55,735 nucleotides of DNA from the NCBI GenBank assembly GCA_964582765.1, contig CAZOSW010000002.1, forward strand, positions 15,041-70,775, given 5' to 3'. Made by a program: the position numbers and the translations under genes. Origin of the DNA: an uncultured Planctomycetales bacterium. Its GTDB lineage: Bacteria > Omnitrophota > Gorgyraeia > Gygaellales > Profunditerraquicolaceae. Below the pieces are notes generated by a model. That model ran no database searches. It worked only from the letters and a program-made list of their open reading frames with translations, and was not told the DNA's origin. This document shows positions 15,454 through 46,903 of the stretch, one piece after another; within the stretch, counting starts at the first letter, position 1, and each line of letters starts with the position of its first letter.

Positions 15454-15527
15454 GGGCCCATAGCTCAGTCGGTTAGAGCAGTTGACTCATAATCAATTGG
15501 TCCGGGGTTCGAGTCCCTGTGGGCCCA
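15454..15527 (+). tRNA. tRNA with CAT anticodon (elongator Met, or Ile2 if lysidinylated)
   Basis: 74-nt cloverleaf drawn by hand: acceptor GGGCCCA/TGGGCCC, anticodon loop CTCATAA, T-loop TTCGAGT. No encoded CCA. Anticodon arm resembles ileX-type tRNAs. Confidence 0.9.
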
Positions 15528-15646
15528 GTTGATAAATTAAAGGCTCATAGTTTTACGCCCGGACCAAAAGGGGTGTGGGGAAGTATTCCCCACGTATTTG
15601 GGGTAACAGCGAAGCGTTGGGGAGCGACGAGCTGGCGAGGAGCGAC

Positions 15647-15677
15647 AGGTCCGGGGTTGGAGTTCCTGTGGGGCCCA
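15647..15677 (+). repeat. Decayed copy of the 3' end (T-arm plus acceptor strand) of the tRNA at 15454
   Basis: aggtccggggttggagttcctgtggggccca versus the genuine tggtccggggttcgagtccctgtgggccca (15498-15527): three substitutions and one inserted g. Confidence 0.75.
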
Positions 15678-15694
15678 GTATTAATCAGGCTTTT

Positions 15695-45582: not shown

Positions 45583-46371
45583 ATGTTTATTATCGGTGAA
45601 CTGATTAATGGGATGTATCCAAATATCGCATCAGCAATTTCTAGACGCGATAAAAAAGTAGTGCAAAAGTGCGCACTGGAGCAAATTGCCTGCGGGGCTG
45701 ATGCTATAGATATAAATTGCGGGCCGGATTCTAAAGATCCGCTGATTGATTTACCGTGGCTTGTAGAAACCATCCAGGAGGCTACTGATAAGCCGCTTTG
45801 TCTTGATTCTAGTAAGCCACGGGTCATTGAGGAAGGTTTGAAGGCATCGAGAAATAAAACTATTATTAATTCTACGACAGCTGATAAGGAAAAGTTGGAT
45901 ATTCTTGTTTTTTTGGCTAAACAGTATAAATCCAAGTTAATCGGGATTACAATCAGCCAAAAGGGTATCCCGCAAAATAAAGACCAGCGCGTGGAATTAG
46001 CCGCAGTCATTGTTGCTTATTGTCAGGATAACGGATTCCCTGTTGAGGATCTTTATTTAGACCCAATAGTTTTACCGATTAATGTGGCTCAGGAGCAAAT
46101 AAGCGATATTTTAAAATCTATCTACGAGTTTAAAATATTATCCGAGCCTAGTCCAAAAACTGTGCTGGGTTTAAGTAACATTTCTCAAGGTATACAGGCC
46201 CATAGCTTAATTAATCGCACGTTTTTAACTATGGCTGTTGCTTGTGGCTTGGATTCTGCTATACTTAATCCTAAAGATAATGAACTAATGAACTCATTGA
46301 TTACCGCAGAGCTTATTTTTAATAAAAATATTTACTGCGATTCGTATTTAAAAGCTTACAGAAAAAAATAA
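45583..46371 (+). CDS. acsE: Methyltetrahydrofolate:corrinoid/iron-sulfur protein methyltransferase
   Basis: 262 aa pterin-binding domain (IIGELING, GADAIDINCG, CLDSS, LGLSNISQG). Confidence 0.85.
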   Translation: MFIIGELINGMYPNIASAISRRDKKVVQKCALEQIACGADAIDINCGPDSKDPLIDLPWLVETIQEATDKPLCLDSSKPRVIEEGLKASRNKTIINSTTADKEKLDILVFLAKQYKSKLIGITISQKGIPQNKDQRVELAAVIVAYCQDNGFPVEDLYLDPIVLPINVAQEQISDILKSIYEFKILSEPSPKTVLGLSNISQGIQAHSLINRTFLTMAVACGLDSAILNPKDNELMNSLITAELIFNKNIYCDSYLKAYRKK

Positions 46372-46416
46372 ATTTAAGCTGCAAGTGAAATTCTTGATAA
46401 GTATTGAATAAAAGTC

Positions 46417-46430
46417 TTGGCGGAGTAGCT
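46417..46430 (+). repeat. Orphan copy of the tRNA(CAU) 5' end
   Basis: ttggcggagtagct is identical to 46585-46598 (2 leader nt plus tRNA positions 1-12), 168 nt upstream of the genuine copy. Confidence 0.8.
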
Positions 46431-46586
46431 TGAGCATGCTCCCTGCCTGCCGGCAGTCAGGGAGCATGCGGGCCTGTCCCCTATGCCTGCGGCTTAGGGG
46501 TATTGCGCCGCAGAAGATAAAAATGTTGCGGCTTGATACCTAAACAAGCCGCGTGTACAAGTAATCGATAAAATCAAAATTGATTT

Positions 46587-46660
46587 GGCGGAGTAGCTCA
46601 GCCTGATAGAGCACGCGGCTCATACCCGCTTGGTCGGTGGTTTAAATCCACTCTCCGCCA
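46587..46660 (+). tRNA. tRNA with CAT anticodon (elongator-type Met or Ile2), non-canonical A19/U56
   Basis: 74-nt cloverleaf with acceptor GGCGGAG/CTCCGCC (G1-C72, so not an initiator), C11-G24, anticodon loop CTCATAC, D-loop AGCCTGATA, T-loop TTTAAAT. No encoded CCA. Confidence 0.85.
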
Positions 46661-46903
46661 CTTTAATTATACAAGAGTGGAACTTTCCACTTCGTGGTTT
46701 TCCCGCCTAAAGAACGGGCGGGATTTCGCTAGATGTCTGCCTTCGGCAGACGGTGGGTCCTCAAAAATCCACTCTCCGCCACTTTAATTATACAAGAGTG
46801 GAACTTTCCACTTCGTGGTTTTCCCGCCTAAAGAACGGGCGGGATTTCGCTAAATGTTTGCCTTCGGCAGACGGCGGGTCCTCAAAAATCCACTCTCCGC
46901 CAC
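46644..46903 (+). repeat. Two tandem 121-nt units plus a terminal 18-mer, each boundary being the tRNA 3' end
   Basis: aaatccactctccgccac occurs at 46644, 46765 and 46886. The intervening 103 nt differ at only 3 positions (46732/46853, 46737/46858, 46754/46875). Confidence 0.95.

Follow-up and report, generated by a model that had tools for sequence, protein, structure and literature searches.

A tRNA(CAU) relic with a two-hairpin module lies upstream of a tRNA(CAU) gene in a Candidatus Omnitrophota genome

Introduction

Why would a tRNA gene begin twice? The window analysed here is a 55,735-nt stretch of contig CAZOSW010000002.1, part of a 1.33-Mb metagenome-assembled genome (MAG) of Candidatus Omnitrophota from lake water (39.5% G+C). 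In it the 14-nt sequence TTGGCGGAGTAGCT is present at 46417-46430 and again at 46585-46598, where it runs on into a tRNA-Met(CAU) gene (46587-46661). The 154 nt in between form a block for which an initial annotation, made from the sequence alone, offered two readings: an insertion that had duplicated a 14-bp target, or a truncated older copy of the tRNA. It added that the block might belong to the leader of the tRNA precursor. Comparison with related genomes leads us to regard the block as probably the decayed remnant of an upstream tandem tRNA(CAU) copy, a pseudo-tRNA that would be transcribed together with the gene as a structured leader and whose anticodon loop harbours a two-hairpin module, termed M1, that recurs in spare copies of other tRNA genes.

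Results

The repeat is the start of a tRNA relic

By chance, 14-mer repeats no more than 200 nt apart are expected about 0.04 times in the whole window. The G+C richness and dense folding ascribed to the block both hold: it contains 57-59% G+C, against 25-36% in its flanks, and the leader is more stable than shuffled sequences (z = -5.3). Contigs from independent lake-water metagenome runs match 46250-46612 with zero differences, so the block is not an artefact of MAG assembly. No empty allele of the block was found for this species in the lake-water DNA runs, where the sole difference was a missing trailer unit 3' of the tRNA: one lake-water contig has exactly one 121-nt unit fewer (window 46643-46765), showing that trailer copy number differs between samples.

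The nature of the repeat emerges from relatives, of which 61 were searched at the DNA level and their loci then read. In genomes G027, G020, G022 and G136, a copy of tRNA nt 1-35 occupies the same place, identical at 35 of 35 positions and ending at the anticodon nucleotide C34, with the remaining unit 70-79% identical between these species. The duplication seen in the window is real but its true extent is longer than 14 nt, and the suggestion of a truncated older tRNA copy is borne out. Intermediates connect the two states. The relic of G004 is the same, interrupted exactly between A21 and G22 by a 20-nt palindrome, and G003 and G015 are similar. The window carries the most decayed form, in which nt 1-12 are intact, the D-loop is degenerate or scrambled with the palindrome inside, and nt 25-35 (46464-74), reading GCATGCGGGCC, match the GCACGCGGCTC of the tRNA at 8/11 positions. 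Past the module, the anticodon loop resumes with the junction GGCTTG/ATACC, common to all units composed of an upstream relic plus the module (X units). This accounts for the odd sequence GGCTTGATACC, since its TTG is the end of the module and its ATACC is tRNA nt 35-39.

Longer copies are found elsewhere. The pseudo-tRNA of G005 is nearly complete, its anticodon loop and T-loop each holding one insert, and it reads ATACCCGACAGGTCGGTGGTTT past the module; in G123 and G065, of another genus, the relic spans nt 1-57 and has a T-loop insert. A second copy of the AT-rich leader exists too, as ...TTGATAATTTAAATTGATTTT-GGCGG in G020 shows when set beside TTTAAATTGATAATTTGATTTT-GGCGG, which G008 has at its empty site. 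A 14-bp target duplication is ruled out, because the repeat measures 35 nt in relatives, the pseudo-tRNA of G005 extends beyond the insert and the leader is duplicated as well.

M1 is a covarying two-hairpin module

The downstream trailers of G102 and G149 hold the same hp1-ACUGCGCCGC-loop-GGCGGCUUG arrangement as the module, and for this reason a covariance model, R1, was built (from nine sequences) and run on 201 genomes of the family. R1 matches 34 of them; in the window the match covers 46477-46536 (65.5 bits, E = 6e-14).

The first hairpin, hp1, contains the ccccta/tagggg helix of the initial annotation, which is thus present as part of a conserved, covarying structure: aligned units from 7 species are 95.5% paired with 3 compensatory pairs, and across 27 distinct copies the equivalent helix is compensatory at 6/6 pairs. 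The second, hp2, is preceded by a conserved TATTGCG (family form ACUGCG); its 4-bp core GCCG/CGGC is invariant in the 7 species and, across the family, it is 98% paired with 2 compensatory pairs. Taken together, the 27 distinct copies of the M1 family have 97.7% of cells paired and 8/12 pairs compensatory, with 0/500 shuffles as high, counts taken on a model-fitted alignment and so biased towards R1. The unpaired stretches ACUGCG and GGCUUG are conserved in the family, and an excess of G·U over A·C (18 vs 4) favours the sense strand.

Two further structures had been proposed. The H-type pseudoknot does not survive comparison, its interleaved helix ctgcgg/ccgcag being only 71% paired, with 4/6 pairs broken in 3/7 species. 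The 8-bp hairpin gcggcttg/caagccgc (hairpin B) is present and conserved but competes with the conserved hp2; the two are mutually exclusive because both use GCGGC. Together with 46553-55, the 3' arm of hairpin B is an inverted copy of tRNA nt 25-34, and it could instead pair with the relic at 46465-71, closing a three-way junction. Searches of Rfam 15 at gathering and permissive thresholds scored the tRNA alone on the block (next best HgcG, 24 bits against a threshold of 77), and six other M1 loci matched no family in the same release.

M1 recurs at one position in tRNA loops

Outside this genus, M1 lies in the T-loop of partial 3' tRNA copies that adjoin the intact gene, with flanks ..GGTT(C/T)-M1-AAATCC... 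It accompanies copies of tRNA-Glu (G026, G120, G129, G231, G199, several metagenome contigs and the start of contig C85 of the window's own genome), of tRNA-Met(CAU) (G062, G100, G182, G102 and G149) and of tRNA-fMet (G014, G021, G136, G027 and metagenome contigs). Contig C85 opens with a tRNA-Glu 3' end followed by the M1-bearing partial copy. In the window and its congeners, the flanks are ..GCGGCTC-M1-ATACC.. and the loop is that of the anticodon, yet the spot is the same, between loop nt 3 and 4, where M1 nearly always lies in the 7-nt T-loop of the other partial copies. The intact tRNA-fMet, tRNA-Glu and tRNA-Met genes are free of M1, which is carried by the adjacent partial copies alone. 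We also considered M1 as a T-loop intron of a functional initiator tRNA; this is ruled out by the intact initiator gene upstream of the M1 copy in G136 and G014. Viral contigs scanned with the M1 pattern gave no match.

One copy stands alone. At C85:575-639 (minus strand) of the window's genome, M1 has no tRNA fragment and lies directly behind TTGACT-17-TATAAA (by eye), upstream of a small membrane-protein gene. Separately, in the same genome, contig C11:1-511 (minus strand) carries an initiator tRNA gene (CGCGGGGTGGAGCAGCC..GCAAGGCT) with an insert of 460 nt or more in its anticodon loop, behind GGCT, the contig ending inside the insert. By eye, this insert has an apparent open reading frame (ORF), and its GTCAAATTCGGTGAAGCC stretch is of the kind seen in group I introns; the corresponding Rfam model, RF00028, matched nowhere on the genome, the C11 insert being incomplete at the contig end. 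The counterpart of this split gene is uninterrupted in G136 and G014.

The relic D-arm reads GCT-TG-AGC, compared with GCTC-AGC in the tRNA, in at least five lineages (window 46428-46436; G015, G005, G003 and the distal unit of L043). Because M1 ends in ..GGCTTG and inserts after ..CTC, this D-arm could be the footprint of an M1 insertion since lost from a third CTC^A site.

The D-loop palindrome belongs to a dispersed family

The 36-nt palindrome described in the initial annotation is real, its 18-nt arms being 94% complementary, but it is not a local feature. It is a copy of a genome-wide REP-like family (CCTGCCTGCC/GGCAGGCAGG) with at least 22 hairpin loci whose arms comprise 1-3 units; these include C2 (window 46434-69), C11:11756-96, C22:14370-14578, C46:7924-44 and 18 others. 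Five of the 22 lie within 100 nt of tRNA genes, where 0.1 would be expected (P = 6e-8). The D-loop site TA/GAGC is occupied by the palindrome in G004, in G003 and, on contig C11 of the window's genome, in a relic upstream of tRNA-Thr; in the window's genome, palindromes of the family occupy this site of a tRNA relic twice. One subfamily of the palindrome forms part of a longer repeat, GAAACAGTTTC..CGCAGCCAATCGGGAA. Four Y1_Tnp genes are present in the genome, and three of the palindrome loci listed are on Y1-bearing contigs, with a smallest distance to the gene of about 1.7 kb (C25).

The palindrome and, separately, M1 recur in the genome. A search for further copies of the whole block found none; the X unit occurs once and is therefore not a dispersed repeat.

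Transcription of the block

A consensus promoter scan of 46372-46586 called nothing, in keeping with the earlier statement that no convincing promoter lies between the insert and the tRNA, but a conserved TTGATA-N15-18-TAnnAn candidate does lie inside the insert (Table 1). Upstream of the relic, promoter-like hexamers are visible by eye in other genomes: TTGCGT-16-TATAAT about 30 nt upstream in G231, and TTGATT-16-TGcTAAACT in G123 and G065. A wetland metatranscriptome yielded a 151-nt contig (depth 11.7) that spans a G004-like relic and its palindrome and leaves acsE uncovered, and a contig from a sediment run covers tRNA nt 1-57 and continues into an M1-like hairpin start. Placement of the block in the tRNA precursor leader is thus plausible from the upstream hexamers and the relatives' RNA-seq contigs, with the internal promoter candidate arguing the other way.

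Distribution of the unit and mosaic loci

Alignment A1 makes the comparison proposed at the outset, setting filled versions of the orthologous locus next to empty ones. In most congeners, 5-25 nt separate the acsE stop codon from the tRNA; of the 28 congeners on the acsE tree, about 8 have the whole unit, and G005 and G231 carry it in addition. On this tree, the filled state requires at least 5 changes and clusters no more than shuffled labels, and each of two hp1 subtypes is confined to one well-supported clade. Tandem arrays of two or more units lie upstream of the tRNA in G022, G136 and L043; unequal exchange therefore occurs. The distribution would be best explained by old inheritance with repeated loss through recombination between the 35-nt repeats.

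Some loci combine tRNA types. In G231 (L137), a type-C relic adjoins a type-A tRNA. In G102 (L108) and G149 (L107), type-A relics (39/39) with a different hairpin module, X', adjoin a type-B tRNA, and G102 has type-A 3' ends downstream as well. G126 (L111) shows type B, its trailers, an ORF of about 150 aa and then a type-A 3' part; by eye, the ORF product is zinc-ribbon-like and not nuclease-like. These four mosaic loci recall tRNA-dependent lysogeny or a replacement-tRNA cassette. Within the genus the break of the relic is at C34, whereas X' units break after nt 39; the pseudo-copies of G005, G123 and G065 are longer.

Integrase genes were also considered. Neither an integrase gene nor cargo was found between or beside the repeats in the window, and the four integrase genes of the genome are all on other contigs. 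One of these contigs, C49:2680-3374, has a 383-aa tyrosine integrase gene directly beside tRNA-Lys(CTT), an ordinary island-type arrangement unlike that of the block. G021 (L148, C108, 250-1640 minus) encodes a 412-aa tyrosine integrase, and about 40 nt further on lies a partial tRNA-fMet copy that runs from the anticodon loop to the 3' end and has M1 within the T-loop; this fragment is followed by a terminator-like hairpin and a T run. The window's genome has two small GIY-YIG genes, neither near the tRNA(CAU) locus. At C68:3000-3400, a 104-aa GIY-YIG ORF lies behind the hairpin CCTTGCGAGCAACGCTAGCAAGG, which is almost identical to the X' hairpin upstream of the type-B tRNA(CAU) of G102.

Genomic setting

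An acsC-RACo-cooC-acsD-acsE cluster ends with acsE at 46371; the block sits in the 800-nt gap that separates it from a flippase gene on the opposite strand. The type-A tRNA(CAU) has 100% identical copies in many genera and is not an initiator, because a G1-C72 pair is present. The T-loop inserts of its trailers start with the same TCCCGCC/GGCGGGA hairpin type. The second CAU tRNA of the window (15454-15527) is followed by a G+C-rich, hairpin-rich spacer (15528-15694) that ends in a degenerate copy of the gene's own T-arm and acceptor 3' strand (GGTCCGGGGTTGGAGTTCCTGTGGGGCCCA).

Table 1 Coordinates of the block and adjoining features in the window
Feature	Start	End	Strand	Basis or remark
Upstream copy of the 14-nt repeat (TT + tRNA nt 1-12)	46417	46430	+	Exact repeat of 46585-46598
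Relic tRNA(CAU) 5' half, nt 1 to ~34, split by palindrome	46419	46474	+	Alignment with G027, G020, G022, G136 (intact relic) and intermediates G004, G003, G015
REP-like palindrome; family core CCCTGCCTGCCGGCAGTCAGGG at 46441-62, extended by GCATGC arms	46434	46469	.	Dispersed family in genome
M1, ~58-nt two-hairpin module between C34 and A35 of relic anticodon loop	46477	46535	+	Covariance model R1
hp1, CCCCTATGCC-TGC-GGCTTAGGGG	46478	46500	+	ccccta/tagggg helix extended to 10 bp
hp2, GCCGCA (46507-12) with TGCGGC (46527-32), A-rich loop	46507	46532	+	
Hairpin B, 8 bp, GCGGCTTG/CAAGCCGC	46528	46552	+	94.6% paired, nearly invariant
Possible sigma-70-type promoter, TTGATA, 17 nt, TACAAG	46533	46561	+	TTGATA-N15-18-TAnnAn kept in 6 species; not called by consensus scan
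Rest of relic anticodon loop, ATACC (tRNA nt 35-39)	46536	46540	+	
AT-rich leader adjoining the functional tRNA	46553	46586	+	Similar to the native leader of empty sites
Functional tRNA(CAU), type A	46587	46661	+	ARAGORN and Rfam, 59 bits
Trailer units 3' of tRNA, each closing with a copy of the tRNA 3' end	46644	46972	+	

Discussion

The reading that we favour, with a probability of about 0.58, is that the block is a decayed pseudo-tRNA, the upstream member of a tandem of tRNA(CAU) copies, co-transcribed with the gene as a structured leader. In this lineage, the D-loop of the upstream copy has received a REP-like palindrome; past M1, the order is ATACC (nt 35-39), the inverted copy of nt 25-34 and the duplicate AT-rich leader. 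The unit would be old within the genus and passed on vertically, with repeated loss by recombination between the 35-nt repeats, and the relic half would be held identical to the gene by conversion from its neighbour. Transcribed with the tRNA, the unit would form a structured 5' leader that RNase P removes. M1 would survive solely in redundant tRNA copies because insertion into a single-copy tRNA would be lethal. M1 itself could be a selfish insert, an element of RNA stability or processing, or a small RNA.

Several points weigh against this reading. The conserved candidate promoter inside the insert, if used, would leave most of the block untranscribed. The metatranscriptome contigs are those of relatives only and may contain DNA. 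The acsE tree represents one gene and may differ from the species tree, and the M1 pair counts carry the bias noted above. Finally, the mosaic loci are a poor fit to simple vertical tandem duplication and point to horizontal replacement or a mobile cassette.

An alternative that we consider unlikely takes M1 and its closing stem as the functional RNA itself, either a small RNA or an element that acts in the processing or stability of a leader or trailer; the surrounding tRNA fragments would be a retained scaffold rather than debris. The 27 distinct copies, in which both hairpins covary, the asymmetry of G·U over A·C that favours a transcribed sense strand and the conserved unpaired ACUGCG and GGCUUG are what such an RNA would leave. 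The stand-alone C85 copy behind its promoter-like hexamers, the RNA-seq contigs of relatives that span such units and relics kept at 35/35 or 39/39 in a diverging neighbourhood, even beside another tRNA type, also argue for function. Set against these, DNA palindromes can also retain pairing through repair that uses the opposite arm as template, about 20 of the 28 congeners do without the upstream unit, the window relic is decaying and split by a palindrome, no target, partner protein or phenotype is known, and no Rfam family matches.

A further question is whether the locus is a scar of site-specific integration at the anticodon loop, which we consider improbable. Here an element bearing a tRNA 5' half, or a whole replacement tRNA, would have recombined at about GGCTC/ATAC, left the resident 5' half as an attL-like remnant on the upstream side and shrunk to about 110 nt, M1 being its att-proximal end. 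A break in the anticodon loop is a classic integrase sublocation, presence differs among congeners, and M1 is always on the inner side of the partial copy, facing the intact tRNA. The integrase gene of G021 that ends about 40 nt before an M1-bearing tRNA-fMet copy, the order intact tRNA-fMet, ORF, M1-bearing partial copy in G136 and G014, the mosaic type A/B/C loci and the precedent of tRNA-dependent lysogeny (PMC10865867) are all in keeping with such a scar. Yet an integrase match beside M1 was found in only 1 of 15 genomes checked, the window's genome has its integrase genes on other contigs, and the M1 pattern drew no match in viral contigs. The pseudo-tRNA of G005 continues past the module, which makes M1 an insert in a whole copy and not the end of an element, and the leader is duplicated too; hp1 varies in sequence with its pairing kept, unlike a protein arm site.

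That a small transposon or miniature inverted-repeat transposable element came to rest upstream of the tRNA with a 14-bp target-site duplication is suggested by the exact direct repeat around a G+C-rich block and has next to no probability, given repeat lengths of 35 nt (relatives) and 57 nt (G123, G065), tRNA-derived sequence inside the supposed insert (46464-74, 46536-40), a single copy in the genome and the absence of terminal inverted repeats.

The pseudo-tRNA reading invites comparison with known systems. The tyrT-tyrV operon of E. coli reportedly carries rtT repeats, 178-bp units each ending in a tRNA-Tyr 3' end and associated with rtT/RttR RNA. A recent preprint mentions rttR (bioRxiv 10.1101/2024.07.17.603846). 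As in that system, tandem gene-free units lie beside a tRNA gene, each with a partial copy of that tRNA and in variable copy number (upstream arrays in G022, G136 and L043, downstream in the window), and they would be co-transcribed with it. Unlike rtT, the unit here is upstream and has the 5' half; its partial copy contains, at an exact position, a covarying two-hairpin module that recurs at several tRNA species.

A direct repeat of part of a tRNA, a breakpoint in the anticodon loop and variable presence are shared with the attL/attR partial tRNAs of tyrosine-integrase islands and prophages (Islander, PMC4383910; tRNA fragments, PMC9897764). In contrast to these, the repeats are about 110-150 nt apart with no element or integrase between them, it is the 5' half and not the 3' part that is duplicated, and a relative's pseudo-copy passes the breakpoint. 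In the tRNA-dependent lysogeny of actinobacteriophages, the element disrupts a host tRNA gene and supplies its own (PMC10865867); likewise, G102, G149, G126 and G231 have the resident tRNA as fragments and another allele of the same anticodon as the functional gene. The likeness is limited to these relatives, since no phage genes are present here and the window's relic and gene are of the same type.

REP/REPIN elements go with RAYT (Y1) transposases, and PATEs are palindrome-associated elements of the IS200/IS605 family. The 36-nt palindrome is, like REP/REPIN elements, a dispersed, extragenic, G+C-rich family in a genome with four Y1_Tnp genes. M1 is compatible with a PATE in its two hairpins, its lack of a target duplication and its fixed point in a hairpin loop, ..TT(C/T)-M1-AAATCC in T-loops and ..CTC-M1-ATACC in the window; unlike recent transposition copies, its copies differ by compensated changes. 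Archaeal tRNA introns, as in Thermoproteales, occupy non-canonical positions in the D-, anticodon and T-loops. M1 likewise inserts in the loops of tRNA genes at several loop positions, but its hosts are bacterial, it resides in redundant or partial copies and intact tRNA genes are uninterrupted.

A wider proposal, speculative and in our view doubtful, is that M1 may be a miniature mobile module that inserts, by a single-stranded DNA or RNA route, after the third nucleotide of 7-nt tRNA loops (YTY^A), that is, at T-loop nt 56/57 and anticodon-loop nt 34/35, with the GCT-TG-AGCC variant of the D-arm maybe the footprint of a third site. Such a module would survive in redundant or partial copies and, together with replacement-tRNA cassettes, would drive turnover of the A/B/C alleles in Omnitrophota. 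Candidate mobilisers are the genome's Y1 (IS200/IS605-type) transposases or small hairpin-led GIY-YIG genes.

Partial tRNA copies beside tRNA genes are usually read as integrase scars. Here, a 5'-side relic bears a precisely placed, covarying, RNA-like module, which for at least three other tRNA species is found in the T-loop of spare copies, in a phylum of ultra-small uncultivated bacteria. If M1 is mobile, it would define a new logic of targeting, directed at loops within the most conserved genes known, and would offer a mechanism for tRNA allele swaps between lineages; if it is a functional RNA, it would represent a family not yet described, with tRNA as its natural display scaffold. In both cases, the R1 sequence model and a fixed insertion coordinate are available for others to test.

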